64,000 bases of DNA. Origin: Raillietiella orientalis (taxonomy: Eukaryota). The stretch lies in contig JAYWIR010000007.1 in NCBI GenBank assembly GCA_036172245.1, forward strand, positions 496,001 through 560,000. Reading direction: 5' to 3'. The position numbers and the translations under genes are program-made. Shown here piece after piece: positions 24,109 through 54,543 of the stretch (position 1 is the first letter of the stretch; the number at the start of each line of letters is the position of its first letter). The notes under the pieces were generated by a model. The model had not been told where the DNA came from. It searched no databases and saw only the letters and a program-made list of their open reading frames with translations.

Positions 24109-24810
24109 TTACCAGGCCACCACGGGGCTCGCACCGAAGACGTCCCAGGCGACCTCTTCGCTGCCACTCTCCTGGGAGGCGTCCAGGCCCCAGTCGGCGT
24201 CCAGGACGTGCCCCAGGGAGAGCGCACAGCCCCTGGGCTCGCAAGGCACAGGAGGCCCTAGCGTGTCCCGGGGCTCCCTGCGGTTGCAGCCGGGGGGTAT
24301 GTCCTGGGGCAACGACCTGCAAGGAGCACTCACGAGAAGAGGACCTTCAGCAGCTCCTGAGAGAAGGACGTCCCCCGGAGGCTACTGCTCTCGCAGATGA
24401 ACCTGCGCAGGCAGGAGTCCCCGTCCTGGTGAAGCAGGGAGGAGAGGACGTTGCCAAGGAAACGGAAGGCGTCCTCCCGGCTGGTTCGCATCTTCCTGGA
24501 AAGCAGGATCCACGTCGTGGGCGAAGCCGGAGGGGCGGAGCAGAGTCCCATGGGGAGATTCCACCCTCCTCCCATCCCCCGCCTCCCCGGGAAGAGAGGT
24601 AGGGGAGTAGCTGGGAGAGGGAGGATCCTCCCTGGACAACCGGAGTTACCTGCTGCTGGAAGCGGCATCCACGATGAGCGTGTCCAGCAAGATGACGTAG
24701 GCGAAGGTGGGGAGAGCAGGGGAGCTGAGGTAACTCGGCTTGGTCACTCCAATGACCTCCACGTCCACGGATACGCTGGTGAGCAGGTGCGGTCTCGAGG
24801 TGATGGACAT
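24109..24810 (-). CDS. DM4/DM12-domain protein A (subtype 2); complement(join(24109..24277,24334..24495,24650..24810)); 5' end unresolved
   Basis: Core exon REDAFRFLGNVLSSLLHQDGDSCLRRFICES...QELLKVLFS; upstream exon with RPHLLTSVSV...YVILLDTLIVD; last exon PCEPRGCALS; phase-2 GT-AG introns; minus-strand AATAAA at 23979-23984. Confidence 0.75.
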
Positions 24811-26599
24811 GCCGAAGGCGCCTTTGGAGGAGAGGGAGGGCTGTCAGCCACGCCGGCGTAGGAACGACCGCCACCTTGTGCCAGGAATGCCGCGTGCTGC
24901 TGGGGCTCTCCTATTCGGAAATCCAGGGGGGGACCCTCGCGAGAGAAAGCTGGCGCGGTGCTCCCTTGGATCGCCCAGCCGGGCTTGGCCTCCCTCTTCA
25001 CGCTGCAGAAGCGTGCTGCCGCCTGCAGGCGCGCGGGCGCTCTGTGTGGAAGGGAGGATGGGGGGAGAAGGGGGAGTTCGTTCAAGAGCAGCAGCAGCAA
25101 TTTGACGCTGACACAAGGATCGAATGACACTGCAGTCTGTCCGCCCGGAGGACCTCGCGCCCGCAGGCGCCTCGCCGTCCCGGAAGGCGATGTTCCCAGC
25201 TCGCCGCTTCCGGCGACGCGCCGATTCTGCCGAGAGCTGCCGCGAAGAATCTCCCTGACCTTTCCGACGGGAGGTGCGCCGCTGCGAGCCATGACTGCGC
25301 ACCCAGACGGTGCTGACTTCTTCCACCTAAATTTGCAATTTGCAACATTTTTTTCTTCCTTTTTTGTTGCCCTGCATTCCACGAGCGCCATCGTCTGATT
25401 GCGCCCAGTCCAGTCATTAAGCTCGTTAACTTGGAGTCTGTAGTCATGCCAGGGCTGGGAGTCGGCTGGAAGGGGGATGGATGGAAACATCGATTTCGTT
25501 CATTCCTTGACAGTGGCGCTTGACTACACGAAGATGGCTGCAGCAGCCATCGTCCCTAACGGCCTCGTGGACCCATGGCTCGCGGCACCCTAGCTCACTC
25601 CTCCCAACCGTCATGCGGACGTCCTCGCATGTCCAGTTCAGCCGAGTCCAGTCCAGTCGCGCGTGTCACACCCGCAGCTCTTTCTTGGCGTCTCGAGAGA
25701 CCCTCCGGGTCCTTTTCCTGTCTTCCCTGCTGTCCTTCTAGCTTTTTTTTAGTTTTCTTTTGGTTCGCAGAGTACCTCAAGGACCGTCGCGCCCCTGGCG
25801 GCAGCACAGCAGCTCTTTAACTCTGATCCACGCCACCCGAGGGTGCATGCAATTCTTCAAGGTAAGGAGTACCCCGGGAGGATCACCCTATGCATCCAGA
25901 AAGGGATCCGGAGGGTAGAGTCCATTCCTTTCACGCCTGAGAGGGAGCCCAGAAAAGAAATCTTTTTTATTCTTTCTGGAGAGACCCCTGAACGGGTCCG
26001 CTCCCTTTTTCTTCTCCTCTGAAGAGAACCCCTAAGGGAGACTTCCGAATTTTCTCTGGAGGGCGCTCCCCGAAGGGAGCGGTGCGCTTCTCTGCACTCT
26101 GGAGATATATCATCAATCCACCAGCTCCATGGTACGAGACGGAGAATCCATCCACGAGGGGGGAGGAACGGCTCCTCCGCACAACCTGAGGGGAACCCCG
26201 AAGGGAAGAGGACTGCTTGATTCTGTTTCCTGAAAGGACTTTGGAGGGTCAACTCCCGATCCCGGCCACTCATCGTGGGGATCCGGTATGAACCTCTACC
26301 GTTGCCACACCCGAAGTCCAGCCAGAGCCACCTTTCAGGGATAACTCACGACGCCATCCCCCATCTCTGGGAGCCGACTCTTTCCGAGTATTCGAACCCG
26401 CAACGCTTGGTGGTGCCACTCACGGAGACCGTGACCACTTGGCCTCCGACGCAGTCACTAAGCTCCATGGTATGGGATGGGTACGCGGAGGGGAAGGGGA
26501 GGGTCCACCTCTCTTTTGCACAACCCGAGGGGAGTTCCCACCCCTTGATTCTGTTTCCTGGAAAGACTCCGGAAGGTCAACTTGCGATCCGGCCAGCCA

Positions 26600-26827
26600 T
26601 TGGAGGCGTCCACCAGTGCTGCACCCGAATGGGCCAACCAGCGTCACCTGCGTGGGGGTAATCGAAACCCATGACGCATTCCCCGTTCTCGGCGTCGCCC
26701 CTTCCCGGGGCGGGATTCGAACCTGCCAGCGTCCCGGACGAGCGTCCTTCCCACCGGTTGACCCTGACGTTGGGCGAAGCGCTCCCTTCCGAATGCGCCG
26801 CTGGGCGCTTTCCGCTCGGCTAACGGC
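26600..26827 (-). mobile_element. tRNA-derived SINE-like element, copy 1
   Basis: Minus strand carries A-box-like TAGCCGAGCGG (~26812-26822) and B box GGTTCGAATCCC (26712-26723); the body aligns by eye with 31030-31160. Boundaries approximate. Confidence 0.6.
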
Positions 26828-29800
26828 GGAAGCTTGCGGGGGAGTGGGGGGCGGGCAGATGGGAGCCAACGCGTCCGTCAGTGACCCCGGGCTGCGACGG
26901 CGCTCGGGTCGGCCTCCCCCTCCTGCTCCCGGGCTGTCCTTGGCCAGGAGATGCGTCCAGTCGGACTCTCTCCTCGGAACTCCTGTGCCTGTCAACTTCC
27001 TGCGGTATCCAGGCACCGCGAGCGGATCTTCCTCCTCGCGGGCAAGGGGGACTTCACAGTGAGCCGATCTCCGCTCCCGCGCCGTCCTCTCTGTCACTGC
27101 TCCTTGGCGACGGCTCGGCGCGTCCAAAGGAAGGGACACCGACCTCCGCTCGAGTCCAGGGCCGATCCTGGCTTCTTAGGGGGGGAGCACTCTCGTGACG
27201 CCGTCGCCATCCCCGCACAAAACCCGCAGGTCACCGGCCGACGCGGCGCCGCATCGCTGCTCCACGGGACGTGCAGCGAAGCTTGCCATGACGACGGTCC
27301 TTTCAGCGCAGGGGATTTCCAGGGATTTCCAAGAGTCTCCAGGGATTCTCTCCAGCAGATGACCAATAATGCGTGATGTAAGGAACGTGGCATAAAGGGA
27401 GAGAGGGAGGGAGGAAAGGATAACGGAGATGCACCATGCGCGCTCAAACGGCGGCTCGGGAGATCGCATGGCCGGGTCGACAAGACGCGAGATGCGGGAT
27501 GGGGCACGCAGGCGACACGGGCGGTGGAAGCGCCAGGACGAAAGTAGCGCCTGAGGTCATCCATTTTTTTCGCGACGGGATTCGTCAAGAAAGGCGGAAA
27601 GAAAAGACCAGAGAAAAAGGGGTGAGGGAGGAGTGGAGGATGTGGGGAGGAATTCACGCGAGAGTTCAGGGACCAGTTGCGCCATCCCTGGAGTGCGCGC
27701 TCAGCTGCCTGCTCGCCACCACGAGCGTCCCCAGGTGAGCGGCTTTCTGATCACCCGCAGAGTTCCCGGGAACGTGAACACCGAGAGCACCAACACCCTC
27801 TCAGCTCACCCACTCAGGTTGCGCGTGCTCGCCCCCCTCCTCCGTCCATCCCACCACTCCCCTCCACGCTGCGGCCGAAGTGGCAGCGTGCGCGGGACTG
27901 GTTCGGTGAGCGCGCGTGTGCCGCCGCCCCGTGCCCCACGAACCACGAGGAGGAAGTTGGCGAGTGACGTCATCCTGGGGGGCCGCCGCTCCACTGCCTC
28001 TCACCCGAGCAAACGTGGACTCTTCCTTCCCCACCTTCCCCTTCTGATTCCCCGCTCGCCTGGCCCGGTGGCTCTCCGGGGCGATCAACGGAAGACTCTC
28101 GCCAGCTGTCCGGGCCGTCCCGCGGGACGGGATGAAGTCGCGAGGAGGGCCCTCGCTCAAAGGGCCACCCGAGAACCCGACCTGCCCGAAGTTTTGGGAA
28201 CGAAGTTCCCCTTTACTACAGTGCACGGGGAAAGAGGAAAAAAGAGGATTCCACCCGGCGGACCGGTACCGGGAGGCCGCACGGTTGACCCCGAGCGTGA
28301 CGCGGGCGACGGATGCTCGGCTCCCGACGGAAGCGCGTGGTCTCAGGCGCGCACGTGTCTTCCCGTCGGACGTTGGCCGAGCTTTGCTGCGCTGTTCCTA
28401 TCTAGCCCGCGTCTCGGCGGCAGGGGAAATCAGCAAGGCAACGGCAAACAGAAATCCAAATCAGATCGAAAAGAGGCTGCTGACCCCGGTACCAACGAGT
28501 AACGGTGGTAACGACTGCTTCTCGCTGCGGCTGGAGAAAATCGAACCAGCGAGTCCTGGAGCAGCGAGGGAAACCCAATAAACCTCCACCGTTCCCTTGC
28601 CCGATTGACGACGTGACTCGGGTTTTTTGCTTCGTCGCTTAAGAAGCGAACCGAGTGTCCCCGACCACGCTGGAGATCCGCCTCCGTTCCAGCACCCTCC
28701 CAGCTCTCTCTCTCTCTCTCTGTCTGCTTTCCCCCGACCCTGTCGCTTTTCGAGTGCTGCTGCAGGGAGCCTGGTTCTTCCCCCCTCCCTCTCTCGCCGA
28801 GCGAACCGCCGAATCCGACCGACAGAGAGCTCCCTTTCGCGCTTCCCGGCAGCCGACCATGAATCGCGTGAATTTCGTCCTCGTGACGATGCGTACGCGG
28901 GCCAGCAAGGGGCCAACGAACACATCTCGGCAGCAAGCAGGCCCCAAGCAAGGAGATCTCGTACGCGTGGACAGGAAAAAACGAGAGAGAACGAGTGATC
29001 CCGCGGAGAATTCTGCGGAGATTTAGCGCGCAGCGTGGCATCGCTCTCGCCGTTGTTACCTGGTTACTGCCCTCACTCGCCCGACGACGACTGCACACTC
29101 GGCCCGAATGGCTCCTGGATCTTCGAGGTTTCGGCCCCAAGCAATTCGTAATATACAGCTGTTTTTTTTTTTTTTTTCTTTCTCGTTCCCTTCTTCTTCT
29201 CCTTTCTTCCTCTTTGGAGCATGCTGATCGAAACACGAGATAATTCTTTCCGGTCACCCGACATGCAAATCGTCTCAAACACTTCTTCAGCCTATTAAAA
29301 AAGACCTGTGATTCAAAGTGTCGTGAGAACGCTGACGCACATCTGTGTTGAGACTGCAGCTCGTGCACGTGTCGTCCACCCCAGACGGCAGTCGTGCAGC
29401 CGACTGCCAAACCTTCTGCAAAGGGAACGCGGTTGCCCACGGTTCCCTCGTCTGCTCCCTGATGCGTCCCCTAGCAGGAAGGCCGGTTCCGGGGTCGTGT
29501 CAGGGTCCGCCCAAACTGCCGCGGAAAGATGGGCGAAAGCTCAAAGTTTTCGCGTAGAGCCTTGGATCTCGGTTCCATCTCCCTCCAGATCTTTGGTAGG
29601 GGAGCTGGCAGGGAGTCCGGAACGGTCAGCTTTTGTCTCGGACTGTTTGCCGCAAACAGCGCCGTCACCGACGACAGCAACCGAGTGGATTTCTTGAGCT
29701 TCCTCCTACGTGGCACTTTGCCTACCACCACGAAAACCGAGAGGGCGCGGAATTCCACGCTGCGATCCATCGTGTTCAGGAGGAACGGAGTCGTCTGCTT

Positions 29801-30999
29801 GCAATCCACGGCGGAGGAGAAACTCGTCTTCGGACAGGGGAAAACATCCTTTTTTAAAGAATTTCAGGATCGAGCGGGCAATAGATCCATCAGATCCTCG
29901 CGTTGCTGCGTGCGGCACGGGGAAGCCTTCCAAAGGGCCATTCGAAAACGGGCTTCAGCGGTGGGATCCATGAGGGAGGCGAGAGTGGGTGGAAACGTCG
30001 GCACCTTTCACCGGGCGGATGCTGCAGCGGCCTGGCCCTCTCCCCGTCAGAACTTCGATCCTACAGTCGAATGGTCCAGCACGCACGGCTGGCAGTTCCT
30101 CAGCTTTCTCTCTCTCCTAGCGTGTTCGGTTTCGAGGAAACGAAGCGGAGCACGCGGGCGATGGCAGGCGACATAAATCTCGGCGTTTCCTTCTGCTTCC
30201 CGAGTTGACTGGGGCCGCACACAAGGTTACTCCTTTCTTCGGATCCCTCATTATCCCTTTTTTGCGGAGCGCCTTTTCGTCCGAGATTTGCATCCCCTAG
30301 GTTGCAGCGCGTTTGTTCTTGAGGAAAAACACGCCATGGTGCCTGATCGTAAATGATCGCATCGTTATTGACTCGTAACGTGTAGTTTGGACTCCTCCAG
30401 ACAAAGAAATGTTCCCGTGGATGCCTGAATGCTCACGGACACATCTTTCTTTTCAGCTTGCATCCATCCTCTTCTTGAGCATCTCTCGCGAAAAAAAAAA
30501 GCCTCTCGCTTAATGATTCATGAGCGCAGCTGCAGTTTCGTCACGTACTCCGGCCCCGGTGCGCACGACATCCCCGAACGCTTAACTTCCGCGTAACATC
30601 CACCACTCGCCCTGCGTGGTGGCAGCTCCTTCCGGTTTTGGCTCGTTAAACGGTGCGTCGCTTTCGAAGGACGCAGGTGGGCCTCCGTGTGGCGAAAGGC
30701 GTCTTCGGGACGTCTTCGTGCGGTCAACGGGAATGGAAATCCCGGGACTTTGAACCCGCCGCAGCGCTTTTCCCGGCAGCTGACTTTGCCGCCGTGACCT
30801 TGTTTTATTTTCAGATCCTGGCGCTCCTCTTTTCGGCAAATGTTGCGGTCTTTCATCACTCCTGGTGGCCTGGGATTTGTATGTGTCCCGGCGCTACTTT
30901 TCACTCCTGGTAAGCGACTTCCGCATCCGCTCAGTCCTGTTTCGCCCGTCGCCCCCAAGCAGTCTTTTGGCGTTCCACGCTCTGTGCCCGTCAGTTCGC

Positions 31000-31190
31000 G
31001 TTGGCCTGCAGCGTGTGGACACGTTCTCGGTAGCGGGTTCGATTCCCACCCTGGAAGGGACCGATGACCGAGAACGCGGGGTACGTCGGGGGCTGGTAAC
31101 TCGAAAACCCCCAAGAGATGACTCTGGATCGCCTACTCGGGTGCGGCACTGGTTGACACCCGGTCACGCCAGGGCATTTATTTATAAAAA
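31000..31190 (+). mobile_element. tRNA-derived SINE-like element, copy 2 (5' degenerate)
   Basis: B box GGTTCGATTCCC at 31036-31047 followed by CCGAGAACG...ACCCCCA...TCGGGTGCGGCACTGGT shared with copy 1; ends in an A/T-rich tail. Confidence 0.55.
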
Positions 31191-31900
31191 ATAAACACCT
31201 GTGGCAGGACGTTTGATCCCGTTACTCACAACTACGAGAAGGAACCCGCCGGGAACCGACACGCAGGCCAGCAGGGCTCGCCTCTGCAGCACAGGGGAAA
31301 GGGAGACAAACAAAAAGAAAAATAAAACAACAAACGCACAGCCAAAAAATGAGGGGGGTCGGGAAGGGATCTCCGGGTGCTGGAGGGAAATCTCTGCATC
31401 CTTGTAAGGATGCCGGCAAGTTCCTGTTTTATGGTTCCCAGATGGGGCCATCTTGACGCTGTCCTCATGAAGAGGACAGCAAAATGGATGGAGTCCCTGT
31501 CGTTCTGGCCTCCTCTGGTGCTGCTCCATGCAGCCGCGATCCCGCGTGGGCGGCAAAATGCTGGTAGGGATGCGGCCTGCCAGCGTGTCGGCGTCTCGCA
31601 GGAAGAGGCGCTTTGGAACGTCTCTGGCATCGCCGTCGGGGGTTCCAAGGGTCGCTTCAAAGTGTCCCCAAAGCGGCCGGAGGGCAACACAGTCCACTAG
31701 GAGGTGCAGGAGGGATTCCCACTCCCCGCACCTTGAACAGTTCAGATACACCCCTCCCCCCCGTGTCCAATGATCCCAGTGGGTGTTGCACGAGAGGCCC
31801 CAGTGCAGTAGCATCAACGCCGACCCCTATCTCTTAAAGAGGAAGGTGAGGGTATTTTCACAAGCAACGGGTGCCACTGCGCTGGTCCTCATGAACACTG
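31180..31900 (-). mobile_element. 5'-truncated L1/Tx1-like non-LTR retrotransposon, 3' fragment, copy 1
   Basis: LHWGLSCN...NCSRCGEWESLLHLLVDCVALRPLW (CCHC zinc knuckle typical of the ORF2 C-terminus), then a T-rich 3'UTR shared with copies 2 and 3. Boundaries approximate. Confidence 0.7.
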
Positions 31901-34220: not shown

Positions 34221-34279
34221 TAAAAATAAACATTCACAATCGCCGTGGCTGAACTGGTGGTCCATCCACTTTCTTTTCA

Positions 34280-36406: not shown

Positions 36407-37271
36407 ATGGCTGCGGCGCAGCGGTGGTGCTGCTGCCTTACCGTGGCTTGGATCGCCTGGTGGTGCCCCGTGGAGGCCGTCATCCACAACCCACTGCAGG
36501 CCTCCTGGCAGTGGGACTCCATCTCTATCACCAACCTTCTGAGTTTGCCGCAGTTCGACGAGCGGGACCAGCTGGTCCGGAGGCTGGGCAGCGTCACCAT
36601 CCGCTTCACGACGAGCGTCAGTCTCGGCACATTGCTCAACAATACCAAGCTGCTGGAGCTGGGAAGGAGGAGGAGGTGAGAGGGCGCTCAAGAGGGAGGG
36701 AGGGGGAGCAACGCCTCTCCTCCTCCACCTCTCGCTGCCTGCGCTCCCCGAGAACCCGCTCTCTCCAGGCGCGACGTCGGAAGCGACTACGGGAGGGCCA
36801 TGGAGCAGGTGGAGGACCTCCTCAGTTCTGTTGGGCTGGATGGTAGGAACTGCGTCCTGCGACTCATCTGCGAGCTCCAGGAGTACTCGGTCGGCTCCAG
36901 GTCCTTCCTCGGGGAGCTGCTCCACGAGTTCTTCACGTGAGTTGCGACTGGAGGGCTCACGTGAGGGCGGGGGAGAGAAGGAAGAGGAGGAGGAAGAGTA
37001 AAGGGGGTGTGGGAGAGCGAGAAGCTAGGAGGGAGGGCGGCGACCTCCTTTTTCCCCCCTCCTCCTTCCTCCCCGCGAAGTCACGACTCCTTCCAGGCCG
37101 ACGACTCACCTCTGCCGCAGCAGTCACGAACACTGCAGGGCGAAGAGGCTCGGGGAGAGCCGCAGTCCCCCCTCCTGCGGTACCTCCTTCCGGAAGTGCC
37201 CGCTGTCTATCTGGAATCTGCTCCAGCACGTCCGGAGCGCGAGGGCATCCTCGTCGCGCCTTCCGCAATAA
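36407..37271 (+). CDS. Secreted DM4/DM12-domain protein B (subtype 1); join(36407..36675,36769..36936,37097..37271), 203 aa
   Basis: Signal peptide (CCCLTVAWIAWWCPVEA); core VEDLLSSVGLDGRNCVLRLICELQ...FLGELLHEFFT; C-terminal SCGTSFRKCPLS; AATAAA overlaps the stop codon. Confidence 0.88.
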
Positions 37272-37825: not shown

Positions 37826-39065
37826 CTACGGGCCGCAGGTCTGCTGCTGACTGTAAGCGGCGGCATATCTCGCGTAGTCCTCCAGGCTGGAGATGGACAG
37901 GGGGCAGCCTCGGTAGACCTTCCGGCAGGACGTTGCTCCCGTCCCCGCGGACTTTGCCTCTGCGTAATCCCCGGAGCTTCCCGTCGGCCTACGGAACGAC
38001 TCATCCCTGTCGGCCGCCCCAGCAGGCGCGAGCCCGCGGCAAGGACGGGACTCACGATAGGATAACGGAGAGCAGGCGGCCAAGGAATGACCTCTCTGCC
38101 AGGCGGTGCTGCTGCGCCTCGCAGACCAGGCGCAGCACGCAACTCCTCCCGCGGAACCCCATCTCGCTGAGGGCCCGAGCGATCCGGCCCAACACCAGGA
38201 TCTCGTCTTGGAAGGCGCTCCTGCGGAAGAACAGGAGGAATAGTTGGGAGGGAGAAAGGTCGGGAGTCACGCCTCGGAGGCTGTTGTCGAGAGCCCCCTG
38301 GTCGGGTGCCTACGCTCCAGCAGTGGAGGGGCGACGCTCCCTTCGCGCGCTTTCGCCAACATAGCCGAGCCGGACGCTGCCTCGTTGCCGCCCTTTGGAT
38401 GGCGTCATCGGCAGGGAGGGGTCGCCGCAGGCAGAGTCACACCAGCGGTGCCACGACTGCCACCGACGCTCCCGTGGGTTCGGATCTTTGACATCGGCGC
38501 TGCGGTTGGGGAAAGAATTCGCCCCACCATGTGGATGACGTCATCTCGCTGGGATGCTGCCGCGCCATGACCGAGGCTAGAGCGTTCGACAGCCCCACCT
38601 TGGGCCTCCTCCTTCCTCCCGACGTGAGTCCGGAGCTTTGCTTGCCCGACCCCCTCTTACCTGCCCAGATTGAGGAAGACGCTGTTGTTCATGGCCTGCA
38701 GCATGTCCACGTAGATGGGGAACTCCATAGACAGCGCCCCGATGAGCTTGTAGGCGCCGTCCACTTGCGTAAAGGACGGCACGTGGATTTTGTTCTCGAA
38801 CCTCAGCGTCGCCAGGCGCATTGTTGCCAGCAGGGGGTCGATCCTGGTGGCCGGGTCCCACTCGCCTCCCGCGCGCCCCAGCAGGAGGCACGCAACGACA
38901 GTCGCCGCCGCTGCCGCCGAGCTGCCGCCTCTGTAAGGAGTCGTCGGTGGAGGAGCGGACGGCGAGGAACAGGACGGCTTCCGCTCCCTCCCGTTCCGCC
39001 CCTGGGAAGACTCACCTCCCAGCCGGGATCTCTCGCGCTGCCGCCGAGGGCCAGCGGTGCACCAT
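37826..39065 (-). CDS. Secreted DM4/DM12-domain protein C (subtype 1); complement(join(37826..37988,38056..38220,38661..38930,39016..39065)), 215 aa
   Basis: Core ALSEMGFRGRSCVLRLVCEAQ...FLGRLLSVILS; last exon DYAEAKSAG...SCRKVYRGCPLS; hydrophobic leader AAAAATVVACLLLGRAGG; minus-strand AATAAA at 37778-37783. First exon less certain. Confidence 0.85.
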
Positions 39066-39838
39066 CGTGCTAAGGGAAACCAAATCTCGGAGTCTACAGA
39101 TCTCCGGTCCCCTCATGCTGGAAGCGCCGGCCAGCCTAGGGCGCATCTGCTCTGCTCCTCACGTCAGGGGAGAGAAGCGGAAGGGGAGAGAAGGGAGCGC
39201 CCCTCTCTCCCCTGCCGCTTCCCTTTCCGATCGCGATGGCCCAGTCGGCCCGCGCTCTTCTTCCCCTGCCTGCATATCCGCTCCGCTCTTCTTCCGGGTC
39301 GAAGTCCGTCCATCGCCACGGGCCGCGTGGAGTTCGCCGCAGCGTCCGACCGGCAGGAGCCCAAGCCCGCTGCTGCCGTCCGGCAAAAAGCAGCCCGCTG
39401 CCCCTTTGGAAGCGCATTTTCCCCCCGTGTTTCCCGGTAAGCCTGAGGAAGGGGGCAGGGGGGAAGTCCCGGCTCCCGTTTCCCTCCACCCTCCCTTCTT
39501 CCTCTTCCTCCTGCCGAACGACTCACGTTCGTTGCCTCCTGTCTCCCCGCAGTCCCACTCCTCGATCCGTCTCCAGGTAGGGGTCAGACCACGAGGTGGT
39601 CTTCTATCATTCCTCCTTGGACCGGGCACCGTCTCCGCGGATCCGACTCGGCACTTCCCGCGGAAAGGAGAGGTTGTCGAGGAGGTTCACAGCGCACATG
39701 CGCAGAGTGGCGGGGCGAGCGCGAAGTCAGCGATTTTTAAAGGTCCCCTCTTCCTCCCCCCCCTTCTTTCCCGTCCACCTCCCCGCGTTTCCCAGGTGCG
39801 ATTCCCGAATCTCTAAACTTCTAGCAGCGCCTGACGCC

Positions 39839-40657
39839 ATGTCAGTCACCACCGCCTTCCTCTCCAGACCGGTCTGGCACTTCAGCGTGACCCTGTCCAA
39901 CCAGCTGTTGACCGACGAGAACCTGGACGGCGTCGGCATTGTTCGAGACATCCTCAACATCATGCTGAGCTTCTCCATCTTCCTGGACACCGTCCTGGAC
40001 GACCCGCTAAACCCGAGGTAACAGGTCTGCGGCTCATCCGACCCTCTCCTCCCCTCCCCTCCCCTCCCTCCCTCTCTTCTGAGCCATCCCTCGGGTCGAG
40101 CGGGGCAGTCTTTTCCTCGCGTTGGAGGGAAACTGGGAGCAAAAGGACCGGAGGAGGAAAAAGGGATCGGCGCCTGCTCTCGGGAGGTTGCCTCCTCCCC
40201 CCTCCCCTTCCCACTTCCGGGACCCTCTCTCCGCTGCGTCCTGTTTTCTGGTGCCAGCTGGCGGCTCCTCGCAGGTCTTTCGAGGAGCAACAGGCCGAGT
40301 ACTTCTCCGCCATCGTCCATGTGGTCAACTCCCTCGGGCTCAGCGGGAGGGCCTGCCTGCTCCGCCTGGTCTGCGAGATCCAGCATCTCGACGCCTCCCG
40401 CCTGTCGACCGTCGGCCGGGTCCTGAGAGAGCTCCTCACGTGAGTGTCGCCCTCTCCTCACAGCCGCCCCCAACTCGGAGTGGTCGGTGGCACCTCCCAC
40501 CCCCTCCGTCACTGTGAGGGATTCTTCGCCCAGGCCGTACAACCGGACGTGGCTGAGCGGCGACGACATGTACAGGGAAGCCATCAGGAGCAGCCAGGTC
40601 CCCCGGGAAGACTGCAAGGCAATGCACGGCAGCTGCTTGCTGTCGCTCGTGCCCTGA
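39839..40657 (+). CDS. DM4/DM12-domain protein D (subtype 2); join(39839..40017,40275..40439,40534..40657); 5' end unresolved
   Basis: SIFLDTVLDD exon; core VVNSLGLSGRACLLRLVCEIQ; last exon MYREAIRS...DCKAMHGSCLLS; phase-2 introns. Confidence 0.83.
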
Positions 40658-42230: not shown

Positions 42231-42950
42231 ATGGCATCCCCGAGCAACGTGCTGTCCGGTACCATGACAACTGCCCTGCAGTTAAAGCCGAATCTGTGGA
42301 CGAACATCCAGGTGAACAGCGAGCTCATGGACGGAAGGAGCCGGGAGAAACATCACCCTGCGCCGTACATGCCGATGGCGGCCCTCACGTTCATCTTGTT
42401 CCTGGACAACCTGCTGGACGGCTTCGACTCTCCCGGAAGGTGGCACTTTCGTTCCGTTCTATTCCCGAAGGGATGACATGCATGGGTTCTTCCCTTCCTA
42501 CTACCCCCGCTCCTCCTCTCCCCTTTTCTCCCGCTTTCCCCAAACCGCAGGAACCTTCGGAGAGAGGACCAGCGCTGGGTGTTCCAAGCGATCGAGGACT
42601 TCCTCCTGCGTCTGCAGTGGGCGAACGGGTGCGGCTGTCTGCTGCGATTCGTCTGCGAGACCCGGAGCCACGTGCTGAGCGAGAGGGGCCTCTGGGGGCA
42701 TCTGGTCTCGCTCGTCTTCGCGTAAGTTCGGGCCCTCCTCTCCTGGGGAGTCGCGCGGAGGCAGCGGTCCCACGAGGGCCTTCATCCGACCAGGCCGAGG
42801 GACGGCGAACGCGGGTTCCCCGCTAGGTTGCGCACCGCGTGGGTGGCCGGCGGTCTTCCACGGATTGACTGCATCCGGAAGTATCCGGACTGCCCGTTCT
42901 CCTTGCTGCAGATCCTGGACCGCGACGCTGTGAGAGCATCCTGCGGGTAG
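42231..42950 (+). CDS. DM4/DM12-domain protein E (subtype 2); join(42231..42439,42551..42721,42794..42950); 5' end unresolved
   Basis: KPNLWTNIQV...FILFLDNLLD exon; core IEDFLLRLQWANGCGCLLRFVCET...LWGHLVSLVFA; last exon DCIRKYPDCPFSLL. Confidence 0.85.
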
Positions 42951-44077: not shown

Positions 44078-44720
44078 TCAGCCTCCGGAGATGCGAACGG
44101 CTCCCGGGAGGAACACCTGGAGCAGGGAGTGCGGACATCCGCGGTGCCTCTCCGCGCACCCTCCGCCGTCGCCGCCCCTGTCCTCCTCAGCGTCTCGGAG
44201 CCATTTCAGGAGCGGATTCCCGGCGTCCTTGGGTCTTGTAGGAGGAACGGAGGGTCAGGGGAGGTGGCCTGCCACCTCTCTCCCCTCTTTGGGGGTGGAG
44301 GGAAGGAGGACAACTCACGTCAGCAGCAGGGAGAGAAGTTCTCCCCAGAATCCTATCCGGCGCAGCCCGCTCTCCCGGCTCTCGCAGACGAAGCGCCGCA
44401 GGCACAGCGTGCCTGCGGACCCCACTAGCCGCTCCAGGAAGCTCGCGACCGTCCGGAAGATCCACAGCTGGTCCTCCCCCAAGCTCCTGGAGGGAGACGG
44501 GAGGGCGGGTAAAGGGGTAGAGGGGAGCCGCTCACCTCGTCCCGGGAGCGTCCAGGAGCACGTCCAGGAACAGCGTGTGGATGAGCCCCACGGCGTAGTT
44601 TTGGCGCACGGGGGGTCGACTGGCTCCATCTTGCTCCAGGAGGTCCGCGCTCACCTGGAAGTTGGTCCACAGGTGCGGGGCCCGCTGCATGATGATGGCT
44701 ATAGTGCTTGAGGTGGCCAT
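44078..44720 (-). CDS. DM4/DM12-domain protein F (subtype 2); complement(join(44078..44234,44319..44486,44536..44720)); 5' end unresolved
   Basis: APHLWTNFQV...TLFLDVLLD exon; core FLERLVGSAGTLCLRRFVCES...FWGELLSLLLT; last exon GCAERHRGCPHSLL. Confidence 0.83.
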
Positions 44721-46825
44721 CACCTCCTCCTCTCCACTGAGGCGGCGACCTGAAGGGGAGGTGCGGAAGGACCGAGGAGAGTGAGATGGGGTTGGGAAAC
44801 CCAAGAGCACCTTTCCCCCTTCGCCCCTTAAGAACCTCGGCGTCCGCCCGCGGGGGAACACGTAGATGCGGTGCAGGGGGGAGGAAGGCTGCACTCCCTG
44901 CGAGGGCTGCCCTGGAGGGACGGGGGGCGAAGGAGGAGCATGCAGGGATGAGGAACCGCCCCTTGGGATTTCCCCCTCCCCCATCCCTCCTCAGCCGCCC
45001 TCAGTCTTGAGAAAACGACTCTAGCCCAATGGCCCTCCGCACCCCGGGAGCTGAGTGGGCACCGACCCGCGCCGCTTCCTTCTTCCCGGGGGACCGAACC
45101 GAGGAAAAGGGGGTCGATCAGAGAGAGAAAGGATCAAAGGGTCACCCACCCGTCCCTAGAAAGCTAAACGGGAGGAACTCACCTAGGATGCTGCTGGACC
45201 TCTCGGACGCAAGGGAGGAACTCGGAGGCGTTTTTTCTTCCCAGGGGAGAATCCTCCCGTCTCAGGCGGGGGTGAGGGTGGAATAAGAGGGGAGGGAGGG
45301 GGAAGGAAAACGCGGTCTCCTCCATCCCCCTCTTCTCTCGCGCGTTCCCTCCCGATGCTTATCGGCCAGTCGGGGCGACGTGCTGATGACCCCCGGCTCC
45401 GCCCCCTGCCTCCGCCACCGGGACACTCTGCTTCTTTCATCAGAGGACCTCACACATATGGCTTTCCCAGGTCAGGAGGAGTTAGGCCGCTCGTTCACTT
45501 CCCCTCTGGAGATAACTCCTCTCCCATTACTCAGAAAAGAGGGATGGAGGAGCGTTTGCTCGCGCGTAACGGGGGGAGGAGGAAGGTGTACGAATTAGGG
45601 AAGCGCCCACTTCTGACTCGCTCGCGGCAACCCTAGCAGCAGCTTCCCGGAAGCAGCGCTGGATGGGGGACGAGGAGCTCTCGGAACAACCTCTCTCGAC
45701 TATCCCAGGCACTGGGGATCTCCGCATCCTCACTGCGAGTCCCGTCGGCTCCCAGGTCCCCTCGAGCCTGAAGAGGAGCCGGCCGTGACTTCCGGCAGCT
45801 CACTTCCCACAGGTGAATCCCCCTCTCATAGGAGCGGGGGACTGGAAGGGTGCAGAAAAGGAAGGCACGGTAAGACAAGATTTTTTTTTTTTTTGGACCT
45901 CCTCCGCTCGTGGAGCAGGAAGGGGAATGAAGGGGATAGAACGTTCGTTCCCTTTCCCTTACCCAGCAGCCGTTCGGTTCCTTCAGGAGGAGTACCTTAG
46001 AGAAGTCGGAAACAGGGTGCTCCCTTCGGAGCAGCTTCCGAAGCACGTGGGCCGGTCCACACGTTTCCACTCTCTTTGACAGTGGCTCTCTTCCTTTGGA
46101 CATCGAATCTGCAGCTACCGTATTTTCCCTCCGAAGGAAGCAGCGCCTCAGCGGCATCTTCCTTCAGCTCCTCCAGCACTCCATCCCTTCGACCGAGGAC
46201 GGACAACTCTCTATCTCCTCACTAACTCTCTCTAAGATCTCTCCTTGAAGTGCTCTCATGAGACAGGACAAAGTCATCGTGTTGACTTCCGGGATCAACC
46301 ATTTCGGGAGCGTACTTTTTCCATCCGGTTCTTGGGAACAAAGCTTAGGTAAGCAGAGCTGAGTTGCAGGCTGGCAGCTGGCGTCCTGAACAAATGGCTC
46401 TTCCGTCTCCCTCGCCGGCCAAAATGACTGCTCCGATTCTATGGAGCTTCAGAGAAGTGAGGGGTCAAAAGTCTATCCCTTTGGAAAACCTAAGGATGAG
46501 ATCCCGTCACGATAAAGAATAGCCTTTCGGTGTTCCAACAATCTCCAACAAGTGCGGCTTTTGGGGAAGGATTCTTGCGAAACCTGCGATGTGATTTCGA
46601 CATGGGGTGAGTTCATCTCCTGGTACAGCTGCGTTTTTCCGTTTAAGATCGGCAGAACAAACATTCGCTGGAAAGTCACCCTGAGGGCTCTTCGCTAGTC
46701 GATCGTTGCTTCCTGCTAAGTCTTCAAATTCGTTCTTGCGGATGGAAAAGCCTCTGCTTAAAGGACACGGATATGCAGTCGACTTTATCAAATGCCCGGC
46801 TGCTGAACCGGTGAAATGTCGCATT

Positions 46826-46947
46826 TTTAACAATGCAGCATGGAAATTCGCCAACAATGGTGTGCTCTTTTAACAATGCAGTATGGAGATTCGATAACAA
46901 TGATACGCTCCTTTAACAATGCAGTCTGAAGAAATAGCCTAACAATG
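46826..46947. repeat. ~43-bp tandem repeat, about 3 copies, with six AACAATG motifs
   Basis: TTTAACAATGCAG starts at 46826, 46869 and 46912; AACAATG at 46829, 46853, 46872, 46896, 46915 and 46941. Confidence 0.85.
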
Positions 46948-47636
46948 AAGCTGCAGGGAACGGCGGGAAAGAAATCTCTTCAAATGCAAAACAGCACTGC
47001 GAAGGTTGAAAACAAAGAATTCGTTTGCTTTCGTGTGAAATGCATTAATGAGAGGTTTGAATGCGTTCAAGAGAGAGTAAGAAACAGTAAAACATAAAGC
47101 GGAAAGCAAGAGGTTTGGTTACAGCAATGCAAAATTTCCTTGCAACTCTCTCTACTACTATCTTTCCTGACAGCTCTCAATGCCGAATGCTAGCCTCTTA
47201 CTCTCAGGAAGTTTCCTTTTTCCTCGTTTCTAACAGGCAAGCTTTCCTTTCCTGAATGAAGATGAATCGATTGCATTTTAAGAGCTCGTAACTCGCTCAA
47301 GACCCGAGAATTTGCAGATCGGAAACCCTGCACCCATCACCGATCGATAGGGTCAAGTAGCAGCAATGGCGCGCCTCTTGAACGGTGATCTCCGCGACAA
47401 TGTCCTCGAGAATGGTGGAGCCTTCCCTCAAATGCCATTTTTTGCAGAGCTTCCTCCGGATCGAAAGACCCTCCCGAGATCTCAGCAGCCTCAGAACCAG
47501 CGCTGTTCTTCCGATCGGAAGGTGCTAAGGCGACTTCCTCGCTCTCATGGTCAGGCCGGATCGCAACTTTTGTCGAGGATCGGCTCTGAGGAAAAGGAAA
47601 ACAAAGAGCACCGTTAAAGAAAGATTTAGAGGAAAA

Positions 47637-47674
47637 GGAAACGTGGAAGCATCGGACGATGCTTCCACGTTTCC
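47637..47674. repeat. Perfect 18-bp inverted repeat with 2-nt spacer
   Basis: GGAAACGTGGAAGCATCG-GA-CGATGCTTCCACGTTTCC. Confidence 0.9.
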
Positions 47675-49351
47675 CGCAACTCCGCCACCATCTCGGGACA
47701 CCTTACGGATGATCCAAGGGAACATGAACGTTCCCTGTTACAATCCCATGGTGAGGACAACTATTGCCCTCTTCATCACCGCTATCCTTGTGCGGTGGTG
47801 GAAGATGAACGCCATAACAGCCGTATCTCCGATGGAAATCCTAAAAGGGCTCATCCAGAAGGAGATCGGGATCAGGAATTGTGGACGAGTGCCAACCTGG
47901 ACGTACCGTTACATCCTGAAGAGGATTGAGGACGACTCAAGGGCAACGACTACGACCAACCCACCCTAAGTGCAGAACCCAGTGTTACCCCAGAAGCTGA
48001 CTTCCAAGTGTCATTTGTGAAGTGCTTGAGATGTATGAATGAGATTGTAGCGTGAATGATAAAAATAGAAAATAAATTTACCCCACTTCTTGTGGGACTT
48101 TGGGAAAATCGAGATCTCTATGTACGGCAAGCAACCCGGCATCTCAGGACCTGACTGTAGCCCCGATTCGCAGCCCCCAGGCAAGAAAAGAAAAAAAGAC
48201 TTGCTCCGTGTCCTTGGTCCAGGCGCTGCATTTGGCTCTGAGGAGAGAATTCCGTTTGAAGAAGGCTCCAGGGAGAAACGCTGCTGGAGAGCATTCAGTC
48301 CACTTTAAGTCTCTCCCTTGGCAAAGCGCCTCTGCGTGTTCCTCCGTGAAATGTCCTTGGAGACAGGAAGGGCGAGAAAAGATAGATAAAAGAGAGGAAT
48401 AGAGATAGAACAGAGATAAAACAGAGGAGCGAATGAATCCTTCAGGGCATCGAACGGTTGCAGCCGCAGGGGCGATGGCCAGCCATCTGCACGTCACGAA
48501 TACCATCCGAGATACTCTGCAACTTTCCATCTCCTGCCGGACATGGTGTGCGTGTTAGCGCACGCTTCCTGCCGGGAACGGATTTGCTTCTCTGCACGCG
48601 CATCCGACCATCATGAGGGGCCAACTGGGCCGCCTTCGCCACTCTGCAGCCCTAGACCCACTCTCCCCTCATCCCTCTCCGCCAGCCACAGTCATTCCCG
48701 AAGAGATCAAAAAAAGATCCCCTAGGGAAGCACTCCAGGCTCCGCGCTGTCCGTCCGACCAGGAGCGGACTCTCCGCATCCTACCAGGATCCAACGGAGG
48801 CCTCACCCAAGTCACCCTTCTGCGCAGGAATGCTCTGATTTGGTGTCTTTGAGGCCCTCTCGGTCTGGTGAGCCGGACATCGGTTATTCCTGGATATAGA
48901 GAAAGGTCCTGGAGGAGTCCTGGAAGGTCTGGATCCTCCTACCATTTTCTCAAGGCTATCGCCCTCGGATCCACCTCCTTCTCCGCGTCAGCCCTTCGAA
49001 GGAATCGCTCCCCCTTGCCTACCCACCCGCCCCTTCTTCCCGGGAGATTCTCACTTCCCGCGGCATCCTCCCCAAAGAAACCATCCTGTTCTCCCACACC
49101 ATTGATCCGGGCGCTTGGGACCCTCGGAACATCCCAGAAGTGAAAGGAAATGCTTTATTGCCCGATAAGGTGCAAAGGAAGGTTCCCTCGCGTTGTCCGG
49201 AAGGAGTTCCCAGACTCTTCCTGGATTCTCGGGAGCTCTCCTTTCGTTTTTTTTTTTATGGGGAGTCGGCGCGCGGAGGCCGCCACCCTCCCCCTCCTCC
49301 TCCCGCCGTGGCTTCTCAAGGAGGAATCATCAGCAAGGTACTTGGGTTTCC

Positions 49352-50305
49352 TCAGGGATCTTCCTCGTCGACCAGCTGGATAGGGCATTCCGGGAACAGC
49401 TGGGAGCACGGCACACTAGAGTTCCCTTCGGACGGGGATACACTTGATGAAAAGGTCCACCCGTCCAGGGAGGATCCCTTCAACCTGGAATTCGGAAAGG
49501 GTAAGGGGGCGTCTTTGATAGAGGGAAAGACCGGACGGGAAGCCCCTGGGGGATTCTTCTCCCCCCCTCCTCCCCATCATCTCAGAAGAAGGGGGGGAGG
49601 TATTTTCCCTGCTCCTCTCCTGCTCTTCCGGCCTTCTTCCTTCCGTGGAAAAGCACCACCGATTCCGGGGGGAAGATCTCCTCCGGAAGCCCTTCCGCAG
49701 AGCAGTCGGTGGTCATCGGCACCCGGAGCGAAGGGGAGAGGGAGCTGACCTTCCCTCTCCCCTCCCCCTGCCGAAGACCTCCGGGGCGATGTCGGCGTCC
49801 CCATTCGTCGCTTGCTGTCCCGGGAAGACGAGAAGACTCACGTGAAGAAAGCTCGGAAGAGCCGCGCCCACGCTGACAAGTGGTCTCCGCTTCCCCCGGT
49901 GAGGACCCACTGGCGGTGAGCCGAGCAGACAAAGCGCCGCACACAGGAGGCGCCGTCGACACCCACGAAGGCGAGTAGTCGCTCCAGGGCGCCGAAGAGG
50001 TCCAGCTGCTGCTGCTGCAGGGCCCTGGAAGCGAGAGAGGGCACTCCCTTCTCGGGACGGGAAGTGCCGGAGGGAAACTCCCCGGCGCCGTCCCGAAAGG
50101 GCAGGCGACAGTGGTACCCTCCCCCTTGCACTCACTACCTGTGCGTGGGCACCTCTGAGACCAGTGTATCTAGGAACAGTATGAGGGGCAGGCTGAGCCC
50201 CACGTTGTGCCTCTCCCTGCGGACGGCGTCCAGGTCGTCGTCCGTCAAGTAACTTTGAGAGAGCCCCACGGTGATGAGCCAGTTGGGCCGAGCTCCGATG
50301 GACAT
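49352..50305 (-). CDS. Divergent DM4/DM12-domain protein G (subtype 2); complement(join(49352..49484,49842..50024,50139..50305)); 5' end unresolved
   Basis: RPNWLITV...LILFLDTLVS exon; core LERLLAFVGVDGASCVRRFVCS; last exon PCSQLFPECPIQL; minus-strand AATAAA at 49154-49159. Confidence 0.78.
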
Positions 50306-51263: not shown

Positions 51264-52034
51264 TCACATCCCGGGGACGCCCTCTGGGAAGAATCTCTCC
51301 AGGGAGAAAGTGCAGAGGTGATAGAGGTGGGCGCAGCGCGGTGTCGCGCCGGAGCGGCCTGCTCGCGCCGCCCTAGAGTACTCCAGGAATTCCCGCCCTC
51401 CCGTCGACCTGGGCCTGGAAGAAGAGCCCGGCAGGCGGCTGCCCGCGCCCCGCCTCCCCCACACTCACAGTAGGAGGTTCCCGAGGAATTCCCAGAGGAC
51501 GGACCTCTCGTCCAGGGCGAAGGTCTTGAGCTCGCAGATGAACCGCCGCAGGCACTGCTCGCCGTCCAGGCCGTAACCGCGCAGGAAGTTGCGCACCCGC
51601 CCGTACATGGCCAGCTGCTGAGCCTCCAGGGATCTCAAGGGGAGAAAGGGACGGTCGGTCGAGAAAGTCGGGTGCGCGGGTGGGGAAAGGGAACCCCCTT
51701 TGTTCCTCCCTTCCTTTCGCGAGCGAGCGATCGGGTGGGCGGCGCCGACCCCCACTGACCTGCCGAACTTCCAGAGGGCGCTCTCGTTGGACAAGCCCTC
51801 CAGATTGACGAAGACGAGGAACTCGATGATGCCGACCCCAAGGTAGCGGTAGCTGCCCCGGGCCCTGTTCAGGAACGGGAAGTGCAGGGTGCTGCGGAAG
51901 CCCAGCACACCCAGCCGGGACGTGCCCTCCTTGAAGCGGGCCGAGGACCCAAGCCCATCCCCGTCCACGGGGACGGGCGTACCAGCCGGCCCCAGCGCCA
52001 GCAGCAGCGGCAGCAGCAGCCCGCAGGCGCACAT
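51264..52034 (-). CDS. Secreted DM4/DM12-domain protein H (subtype 1); complement(join(51264..51414,51469..51633,51760..52034)), 196 aa
   Basis: Signal peptide MCACGLLLPLLLALGPAGT; core FLRGYGLDGEQCLRRFICELK; last exon EYSRAARAG...RCAHLYHLCTFS; minus-strand AATAAA at 51194-51199. Confidence 0.87.
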
Positions 52035-52795: not shown

Positions 52796-53437
52796 TCACC
52801 CGAAGGCGTAGGGGCAGCTCCTCCGGTATGGCTCGCACGTCCCGTTGGCGGATATCCCGGCGCGGTGCGCCTCCTCGTAGTCGCCTTCCGGGTCCAGGAT
52901 CCCGTCCTGCACGGATTTTGGCCTGCTACAGGGAGTCAGATCCCTCCCAGTGCCGGCTTCGCTCACGTGAAGAGGGTCGCGAGGGCTCGCCCCAGGACGG
53001 TGCGCTCGAAGTAGGGCAGCCTCTTGGTCTCGCAGACGAGGCGTAGCATACAGGGCCTTCCAGCGATCCCGTGGGTCGTCAGAGCTCCCTCCAGGGACCG
53101 AAAGAGCGCCCTCTGGTCCTCGGCCAGGCTCCTGCGAGGAACGGAGAAGGGGAGGGGGAGCAGCGTGAGCTGCCGGGGCGGGAAGAGGGGAACGCCCCCC
53201 TGACTGCAGGCCTCACCTCCTTCCCCCGGGCGCTCCCGCGTCGATGAGGTTGTCCAAGAAGAGGGTCACAGCGATCCCGAAGCGGAGGAGCCCACGCGTG
53301 ACCTTTCGGCCGTCCAACTCGCTGCCGGTGTTCACCGGGCCCGTCACCGTGGTGGTCAGCGTCCACCTAGAGCGCACCTGCAGGATGGACTCGATGGGCG
53401 ACGAAGTCAGCTGGTAGGGGGAGAAGAAGGATGCCAT
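52796..53437 (-). CDS. DM4/DM12-domain protein I (subtype 2); complement(join(52796..52922,52967..53131,53217..53437)); start uncertain (possible acceptor at 53411)
   Basis: VTLFLDNLID exon; core LEGALTTHGIAGRPCMLRLVCETK; last exon DYEEAHRAG...TCEPYRRSCPY; minus-strand AATAAA at 52756-52761. Confidence 0.83.
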
Positions 53438-53713
53438 CCTTTCCAGCGCGCGCCTCGCTCCGCACTCTCGGGATGCGTTCTCTCCTGGCGGCAGCGGCCG
53501 GCCAGGACGAACGGTGCCGCCACGCGCCTCCGGCCGTCGCGGCGGGGTGGCGCTCGCGGGGGAGGGAGAGCCGGCAGCCGGAAAGAGAGGAAGCGGAAGG
53601 ATCCGGCGGAAGGAGACGTCCTCCTTGGCCTCCCGTCCCTCTCCCCCTTTTCTGTAGGCCACGCACGTCGCGGGGTCGGCGGCCCGTCCACGTCGTGCGC
53701 GTACCGCCGGGAG

Positions 53714-54543
53714 ATGGCGACCGCCGCTTTCCCGAGGAGGACGTCGCGGCGCCGCTGCCGCCTCGCTGCTGTTGCCGTGCCCCTTCTCTGCTGCGTCTGG
53801 GGGGTCCCCTGCGCCCGCGCGGCCCTGGAGGGTCTCGAGGACCTCACTCTGCGCCCCACGGTGTTCAAGCTGGACCACGTCCTCAACCTGCCCTTCATGA
53901 AGCGCGTCAACGCCGCCTGGAGGTACGAGTCGGTGATGCAATTCCGGTTCAACGTCTTCGTCAGTCTGCCCGCCCTCACCAATGGCACCAAGTTGTACGA
54001 ATACCACCTGGGCAGAAGGTAGGCCACCACCACCCTCTGCCTCTCCCACCCACCCCGCCGGTCAGCGACCAGAGGCGGCGGGTTTGGTCAGCACAAGACA
54101 ACCCCGGGCCACCCTCTCCTCCAGATCCAAGGAGGACGAGCAGCTGTCGGCCTTCCGGCGGGTCGAGTCCTACCTGGACAGCCTGGGCTTTGAGGGCCGC
54201 TCCTGCCTGCTGCGGCTCATCTGCGAGGTCCAGAAGTATCCCTTCCGCCACCACTCGATCTTCGGGGAGCTCCTGCACAGGTTCCTCACGTGAGTATTCT
54301 GCCGCCTCCTCCCTCTCCCCTACCCTTTCGCCCTTCCCTCTTTCTCCCCCCAGGCCGTTCCAGAACTCCCGGAAGTCCTTCGGGAGGTACCTCCAGGCAG
54401 AAAGGGAGGGCAGGGAAAACGGAACCGTCTGCCACCGGAGGTACGAGGACTGCCCCTTCTCCCTGCGGTCGCTGGTCAGGAACACCTTGGGGTCGGCTCC
54501 GCCGGCAGCAGGGGAAGTCTCCCCGACATCGGAAGAGCAATAA
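53714..54543 (+). CDS. Secreted DM4/DM12-domain protein J (subtype 1); join(53714..54018,54125..54289,54354..54543), 219 aa
   Basis: Signal peptide LAAVAVPLLCCVWGVPCARA; core VESYLDSLGFEGRSCLLRLICEVQKYP...IFGELLHRFLT; last exon RYLQAEREG...VCHRRYEDCPFSL; AATAAA overlaps the stop codon. Confidence 0.9.

Follow-up and report, generated by a model that had tools for sequence, protein, structure and literature searches.

The DM4/DM12 proteins (PF07841; IPR006631, 'Protein of unknown function DM4/12') are the closest described relatives of the genes reported here, which form an array at positions 24109-54543 of a 64,000-nucleotide stretch of the Raillietiella orientalis genome (contig JAYWIR010000007.1, positions 496,001 to 560,000 of the forward strand; 'the window' in what follows). 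According to excerpts of the published reports, the form in which all papers are cited here, the family has four highly conserved cysteines (PMC12825958) and numbers 30 genes in Drosophila melanogaster, all uncharacterised (PMC8664486); Osiris17 and Osiris24 of the planthopper Nilaparvata lugens also carry a Dm4_12 domain (PMC12825958). Among the genes that change with age in honeybee larvae are 9-10 DM4/12 genes, and an enrichment table from the same excerpt lists DM4/12 beside cuticle and chitin-binding proteins (PMC9764631). Across 8.4 million papers, our full-text searches by family names and accessions returned DM4/DM12 in these three alone, each time as a passing mention, in agreement with an earlier note on this DNA (the original prediction), which had described the family as poorly characterised. 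That note had also proposed the array as a candidate for an undescribed system. This part of it is not upheld: the ten genes are additional members of a known, uncharacterised family, the one with 30 Drosophila genes, and not a new kind of system. The label 'arthropod' that it attached to the family is taken from the family's known range.

The array consists of exactly ten three-exon DM4/DM12 genes (A-J; Table 1), four on the plus strand and six on the minus strand, and its two ends are the stop codons of gene A (24109) and gene J (54543). A six-frame scan of the 64 kb returned 20 matches to the motif CxxRxxC: ten of these lie in homologous, mutually alignable core-exon open reading frames (ORFs) at 24.3-54.3 kb, and the other ten are scattered, unrelated chance matches. 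The second cysteine of the core motif is followed by E in nine genes and by S in gene G. A second cysteine pair is found in the last exon, as Cx6C in nine genes and as Cx4C in gene A; all four cysteines are retained in each of the ten copies. Five residues of the core exon (R1, G25, C28, R31 and C34) are invariant; core-exon identity to gene J is merely 27-46%, and pairwise protein identity among the ten paralogues is 17-40%. We consider it probable that genes A-J are a tandem array of paralogues, which descend from two or more ancestral genes through repeated local duplication and inversion, and that purifying selection keeps all ten intact.

Membership of the family was assessed in two ways. 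In the Pfam search, which was run on single-exon ORFs (core exons and last exons), PF07841 is matched by all ten core exons (E-values from 1.1e-12 to 3.4e-4); nine of them (22.3-48.9 bits, gene J being the top of the ten) reach the gathering score of 22 bits, and gene G, with the E-value of 3.4e-4, scores 21.7 bits. These matches are confined to profile positions 1-51 of 86, since an intron interrupts the domain. Neither the core exons nor the last exons matched any other Pfam family. The second approach used a local hidden Markov model (HMM), built from 67 database DM4/DM12 proteins (alignment A2) and containing no window sequence (Z = 1e6). It matches all ten spliced models, with E-values from 1.8e-39 (gene J) to 4.2e-7 (gene A); for nine of them the match runs from the hairpin (see below) through the second cysteine pair, that is, over nearly the whole domain (residues 2-153 in gene D). 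When the same HMM was applied to six-frame translations of the whole window, 16 ORFs were returned at E <= 0.01, all within the ten genes, and the best match elsewhere in the window had an E-value of 0.63; there are thus exactly ten copies, with neither an eleventh nor any fragment. The PF07841 assignment of the original prediction is therefore borne out both by the core exons and by the spliced models.

Table 1. Window coordinates of the ten DM4/DM12 genes, with exons in order of transcription, scores of the core exon against PF07841 and of the spliced model against the local HMM, and the distance from the stop codon to AATAAA where it lies within 300 nucleotides (nt); aa, amino acids
Gene	Span	Strand	Subtype	Exon 1	Exon 2 (core)	Exon 3	Length (aa)	CxxRxxC position	PF07841 (bits)	Local HMM (bits)	AATAAA (nt past stop)
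A	24109..24810	-	2	24810-24650	24495-24334	24277-24109	163	24413	22.6	35.4	125
B	36407..37271	+	1, signal peptide	36407-36675	36769-36936	37097-37271	203	36851	39.3	117	
C	37826..39146	-	1	38661 and upstream	38220-38056	37988-37826		38141	39.7	106	43
D	39839..40657	+	2	39839-40017	40275-40439	40534-40657	155	40354	30.4	99.4	297
E	42231..42950	+	2	42231-42439	42551-42721	42794-42950	178	42636	30.1	84.2	
F	44078..44720	-	2	44720-44536	44486-44319	44234-44078	169	44404	22.3	87.2	
G	49352..50305	-	2	50305-50139	50024-49842	49484-49352	160	49945	21.7	65.4	193
H	51264..52034	-	1, signal peptide	52034-51760	51633-51469	51414-51264	196	51554	31	99.7	65
I	52796..53437	-	2	53437-53217	53131-52967	52922-52796	170	53052	33.8	109.8	35
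J	53714..54543	+	1, signal peptide	53714-54018	54125-54289	54354-54543	219	54204	48.9	141	

Database relatives are numerous and distant. A profile made from the ten core exons (alignment A1) retrieved 700 proteins at E <= 1e-3, 65 of them at E <= 1e-10, from 1.84 billion representatives. When the spliced models were compared with the 150 best representatives (BLASTP), the top identities were 24-42%, from which it follows that the genome's own proteins, or close orthologues of them, are absent from those 150. PF07841 was found by Pfam in every set of relatives scanned (10/10, 31/31 of the long ones and 67/67 of alignment A2). The 31 longer relatives carry PF07841 alone, 22 of them in two to three copies, and none contains a credible domain fusion, since their other matches had no stretch that passes by itself; the 22 multi-domain proteins, be they genuine repeats or tandem genes fused in prediction, indicate that local duplication is common in the family. 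In the ESM Atlas, 99% of the nearest cluster is PF07841 (DM4_12), and Arthropoda is its commonest phylum; at a score of 0.88, we treat it as a lead only. An ESM Atlas search that excluded PF07841 gave no usable match, and word-index protein searches with the core of gene J (together with longer lengths), with the gene H read-through described below and with a neighbouring receptor ORF gave no match.

The exon-intron structure is common to all ten genes. Exon 1 ends ...AG/GT (the slash marks the splice site), two bases into a codon; the core exon starts behind a pyrimidine tract and AG with the one base that completes an AGR codon, and it ends ...NN/GTRAGY, likewise after the second base of a codon. 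Each of the 20 introns is of the GT..AG type and in phase 2, and the alignment positions are the same in all genes. They are short (44-440 nt), the lengths including 154 and 56 nt in gene A, 49 nt for intron 1 of gene F and 44 nt for intron 2 of gene I; the acceptor has a purine at -3 in two cases (AAG in F intron 2, GAG in H intron 1). For intron 2 of gene A, an alternative of 17 nt was rejected and the 56-nt intron taken. With the exons joined by coordinates, the ten coding sequences are multiples of three without an internal stop and encode proteins of 155-219 aa. The start codons given for A, D, E, F, G and I should be taken as provisional; gene E has another in-frame ATG at 42150, and a start there would extend the protein by a weakly hydrophobic leader. 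Gene C has several candidate starts. The first in-frame ATG of its exon 1 is at 38821, and a signal-peptide-like stretch lies in frame upstream of it, without an in-frame ATG. Sequence features make an extra 5' exon probable here: it would run from an ATG at 39146, 39116 or 39065 to a GTGAGT donor (AG/GTGAGT at 39016/39015), with its acceptor at 38931/38930, and the candidate exon and the acceptor are both in phase 2.

Everything that the original prediction had described as seen in this DNA was recovered, down to the end coordinates: ten intact spliced genes, the CxxRxxC core with E in nine, the C-terminal cysteine pair and with it the four conserved cysteines, identical intron phases, mixed strands and high divergence. 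Its further suggestion of selective maintenance is also supported, given that the copies are deeply diverged and yet all intact, and that they have a strong coding signature. G+C at the three codon positions (GC1/2/3) of the ten coding sequences is 0.60/0.48/0.86, and that of the introns is 0.66. A three-base periodicity in G+C marks the DM4/DM12 exons and the exons of neighbouring G-protein-coupled receptor (GPCR) genes, and is absent from the gaps between them (25-36 kb and 45-49.3 kb). When the coding sequences were shuffled, between 3 and 44 of 2000 trials per gene stayed free of stops. The low identity among the paralogues implies that synonymous sites are saturated. As observations in their own right, we note a base composition that is out of the ordinary for a cluster of animal genes, and introns that, at down to 44 and 49 nt, are very short. 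CT/GA-rich words were considered as a shared promoter motif in the 300 nt upstream of the ten ATGs, with one 7-mer present in 9/10 (2.3 expected); random sets reach the same maximum, and no promoter motif is claimed.

We also placed the ten genes in a tree of 77 rows that includes them and database relatives. All ten lie inside one clade (starred in the tree) of 50/77 rows, with a support of 95 in the Shimodaira-Hasegawa-like approximate likelihood ratio test (SH-aLRT), within which the label 'window' needs two changes. A group of B, C, H and J is supported with SH-aLRT 91; E and F (40% identity, SH-aLRT 97) stand out as the one close pair. The pattern fits at least two ancestral genes, each of which would have expanded locally and then diverged strongly. 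Repeats at the DNA level among the genes are limited to segments of the core motif, at 60-80% identity, so that no recent duplication has taken place. That the array is old, as the original prediction had it, is plausible; the tree pattern does not prove great age, since it is compatible with as few as two ancestral genes that then expanded within the lineage, on long branches.

Two alternatives bear on the reality and the integrity of the array. The 'genes' could be chance open frames combined with chance motif matches in GC-rich DNA. With G+C at about 59% in the window (0.59 overall; 2-kb windows at 50-54 kb reach 0.67, and the value drops to 0.39 at 60-62 kb), long open frames are indeed common: there are 342 ORFs of at least 100 aa, spurious ones are abundant, and half of the CxxRxxC matches are themselves chance. 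We nevertheless give this explanation practically no credence. All ten cores match PF07841, a profile built without window sequences recovers all three exons of the ten loci and nothing else in the window with an E-value better than 0.63, splice sites and phases are conserved in 20/20 introns, and the G+C periodicity falls on these exons and on those of the GPCR genes and not in the gaps between; the Pfam matches, the independent HMM and the coding signature together refute it. A partial decay of the array is the more serious alternative, and several observations do count against ten intact, maintained genes. The gene models are built from sequence alone. The last exons, scanned by themselves with Pfam, give sub-threshold PF07841 matches (positions 60-86, 12-14 bits) in C, I and J and no PF07841 match in the other seven genes. 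The AATAAA that the original prediction had placed near most of the genes is present within 300 nt of the stop in six (A, C, D, G, H and I), where about 0.09 would be expected per 300 nt; this part stands, and B, E, F and J have neither AATAAA nor ATTAAA within 800 nt. Genes A and G, moreover, depart from the others. Gene A is the most diverged copy and lies 11.5 kb from the other nine; it carries Cx4C, and it matches the local HMM over positions 26-124 of 201 only, so that its C-terminal third is unmatched. Gene G is without the E, has an insertion in its core and a 357-nt intron 2, and falls 0.3 bits under the Pfam cut-off. Both are on very long terminal branches (1.97 for A and 1.66 for G; median 0.55). 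GC-rich DNA being poor in stops, 23-42 of 2000 shuffles of the A and G coding sequences stay open, and either gene might be unexpressed, or a functionless relic that has no stop codon yet. We regard this as improbable: A and G keep the four cysteines, both GT..AG introns in phase, a high G+C at third codon positions (0.85 and 0.78) and an AATAAA behind the stop, and since terminal branches are long throughout the array (1.0-2.0), these two appear as the extremes of a common trend. Our preferred reading hence continues to be that of ten paralogues kept intact by selection.

Another key observation is that the ten genes form two subtypes: B, C, H and J (subtype 1), and A, D, E, F, G and I (subtype 2). 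Signal peptides were judged by hydropathy, taking the best 9-mer in the first 40 residues. In the proteins of B, H and J, the initial M leads into a hydrophobic stretch (9-mer hydropathy 2.24-2.98, with 2.98 for H and 2.82 for J), and in all four subtype-1 genes an N-x-S/T sequon (N-N-T in B, N-G-T in J) stands at the end of exon 1, in the same alignment position. Subtype 2 has no hydrophobic leader (9-mer hydropathy 0.82-1.70); its M-A/S start coincides with the first residues of the homologous region. Its six members have in common an F/L-L-D motif, located in the second strand of the hairpin. Subtype 1 (B, H and J, and probably C) would therefore combine a cleavable signal peptide with a conserved N-glycosylation sequon and is most likely secreted, whereas in subtype 2 the predicted protein begins directly at the domain. 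Two further candidates were set aside: an upstream leader for gene E at 41584 is distant and probably due to chance, and the phase-1 AG that closely precedes the ATG in five of the six subtype-2 genes is not evidence, since a fraction of about 0.57 of such windows is expected to contain one by chance.

Four of the ten proteins would thus be recognisable as secreted, and we have to ask what the others do. The absence of a detectable signal peptide from A, D, E, F, G and I weakens, for these six genes, the reading as extracellular ligands, binders or cuticle components that the original prediction had put forward, and it is a poor fit to any simple picture in which all ten are secreted. Subtype 2 may instead work in the cell or at a membrane, with its cysteines employed in metal binding or redox chemistry, say; the extracellular reading would then cover at most four of the ten genes. 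We think this somewhat unlikely, although a good deal speaks for it. In addition to the N-termini themselves, all six ATGs have a purine at -3, and gene A has an in-frame stop 12 codons upstream of its ATG. An upstream, ATG-initiated hydrophobic exon with a GT donor was found for none of A, D, F, G and I within 2.5 kb (strict search) or 1.5 kb (relaxed search). Among the 67 database relatives, many (about half) have a leaderless start at the same profile position and only 14 have a strongly hydrophobic N-terminus; residue 1 of gene D aligns to residue 1 of four database proteins (BLASTP). On the other hand, those database proteins are automatic predictions, and in the close relative P0048 a signal peptide occupies the very place at which other relatives have their first M, which means that leaderless forms may be gene models in which a short 5' exon is missing. 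Gene C shows that a leader can be split off by an extra intron. Furthermore, neither subtype has lost any of the four cysteines, and subtype 1 most likely passes through the secretory pathway. A different possibility starts from the arrangement of the genes. The array contains two head-to-head pairs, C/D and I/J, and each joins one subtype-1 gene to one subtype-2 gene across a shared upstream region (38821-39839 and 53437-53714, respectively) of 277 to approximately 1000 nt, 277 nt being the ATG-to-ATG spacing of I and J. The array might then hold two co-operating kinds of one fold, the secreted glycosylated subtype and the leaderless subtype acting as partners; these could be, for example, a cargo or ligand and its intracellular or unconventionally exported handler, and the shared upstream regions would allow co-expression. 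We judge such a partnership very unlikely; mixed pairing of this kind has a chance probability of about 0.29 and is a lead, not evidence.

What the domain looks like was approached with AlphaFold2. For the relative P0039 (33% identical to gene I), with an alignment of 67 rows, the model has a mean predicted local distance difference test score (pLDDT) of 86.4 and a predicted template-modelling score (pTM) of 0.68. It shows a beta hairpin (strands 12-25 and 34-48), a short helix, three helices that include the CxxRxxC helix, a further helix and a C-terminal loop with cysteines. In gene H, exon 1, intron 1 and exon 2 can be read through in one frame, and the prediction for this read-through has the same order of elements, hairpin and then helices (pLDDT 83-94 for the hairpin and 72-94 for the helices, against 46-53 for the intron-derived residues 92-133). 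The exon borders of the window genes fall between the structural blocks, namely the hairpin, the three helices, and the last helix with its loop. Each gene would accordingly encode one compact domain: exon 1 would supply the long two-stranded beta hairpin and the short helix, exon 2 three helices with CxxRxxC(E) on the middle one, and exon 3 the further helix and the loop that bears the second cysteine pair. Foldseek searches with the DM4/DM12 model gave 0 matches at E <= 0.001 in the PDB and in BFVD, and a profile search of PDB sequences gave 0 matches at E <= 1; the fold, as predicted, is without a recognisable solved relative in these searches. The best template-modelling (TM) scores in the PDB, 0.24-0.32 over about 75 columns, were to RNA-phage coat proteins, and we dismissed these as a partial resemblance of the hairpin. 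A homodimer prediction for P0039 (score 0.01, mark 0.32) speaks neither for nor against self-association.

Placed on a single helix at a distance of six residues, the cysteines of CxxRxxC cannot form a bond between themselves, so that two disulfides to the C-terminal loop are the arrangement to be expected. The four invariant cysteines most likely form two such bonds, which would staple the loop onto the CxxRxxC helix, and two disulfides of this type would imply folding in the secretory pathway. This pairing is deduced from the geometry of the helix and not from model coordinates, a point that tells against leaning on it too heavily. As to function, the proteins may be, and we put this forward tentatively as the likeliest role, small secreted structural or binding proteins of an apical extracellular matrix or of the moulting programme, which were diversified by duplication. 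The link to cuticle is thin: it consists of a co-listing in one transcriptome table, and this too has to be held against the suggestion.

The array is preceded in the window by genes of another kind. Five ORFs, at 4627-7401 (+), 10258-11363 (-) and 15503-15994 (-), match the rhodopsin-family GPCR profile PF00001 with E-values of 3e-12 to 8e-15; since the regions of the profile that they match differ, the DNA upstream of the cluster must contain no fewer than three GPCR genes, or parts of such genes, with introns. An open frame of 192 aa at 8332-8907 (+) has a very strong G+C periodicity, like that of coding DNA (0.87 at third codon positions, and a local excess of third over second positions of 0.62), and matches nothing in Pfam; an exon that escaped recognition, perhaps one belonging to a GPCR gene nearby, is a possible explanation. 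Within the array, the two wide gaps at 24900-36200 (A-B, 11.5 kb) and 45100-49300 (F-G, 4.6 kb) gave no Pfam match among ORFs of at least 100 aa and no ORF of at least 50 aa with third-position G+C periodicity. The A-B gap contains a 47-nt direct repeat of 85% identity (26216-26262 and 26544-26590, spaced by 328 nt). The F-G gap contains an AT-richer island (G+C 0.49 at 46-48 kb) and a 43-nt tandem repeat at 46826-46932. Beyond the array, a CAG-type short tandem repeat with a 12-nt unit is present at 60517-60553. Rfam and transfer RNA scans of the window found nothing.

DM4/DM12 is among the largest animal gene families of no known function, and the cluster adds to it ten intact and very diverged members. 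It also offers three handles: a clean three-exon map whose exon borders track structural elements; a split between signal-peptide and leaderless forms that is also seen across database relatives; and a confidently predicted fold, a hairpin with a helical bundle, that has no significant match to a solved structure. The handles bring the family closer to experimental test; none of them reveals a system of a new kind.

Three families invite comparison with the array. Insect chemosensory proteins are secreted, small and helical, and their four cysteines fall into two short-range pairs. The window proteins resemble them in being small and rich in helix, in having two close cysteine pairs and in occurring as clustered, diverged paralogues, and on this basis a ligand-binding mode of action, in the sense of 'works like', is a lead only. 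There is no match of sequence or fold between the two; unlike the chemosensory proteins, the DM4/DM12 model contains a long beta hairpin, and its first cysteine pair lies within one helix. The Osiris proteins (DUF1676, PF07898) are likewise an insect multigene family of unknown biochemistry that forms genomic clusters and has conserved cysteine pairs, and, in an excerpt of the planthopper study, the two domains co-occur in two gene models (PMC12825958). Pfam scans, however, gave no PF07898 match in any of the ten core and ten last exons, in the 245 (out of 342) window ORFs of at least 100 aa that they covered (the remaining 97 lie inside cluster segments) or in the database relatives scanned, the 31 long ones included. 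In contrast to Osiris proteins, moreover, the window proteins are without a C-terminal transmembrane segment: outside the leaders, their best 19-residue hydropathy is 1.16-1.65, in a hairpin strand. It is with DM4/DM12 itself that the correspondence is closest. The ten genes share the four cysteines and the CxxRxxCE helix with this family, and, like its known members, they encode small single-domain proteins with many paralogues per genome. They differ from other DM4/DM12 proteins in that their best identity to the 150 database representatives is so low; in that six of the ten are leaderless and their coding sequence is extremely GC-rich; and in that they belong to a sub-clade separate from those database proteins that have a signal peptide and a longer N-terminal extension.

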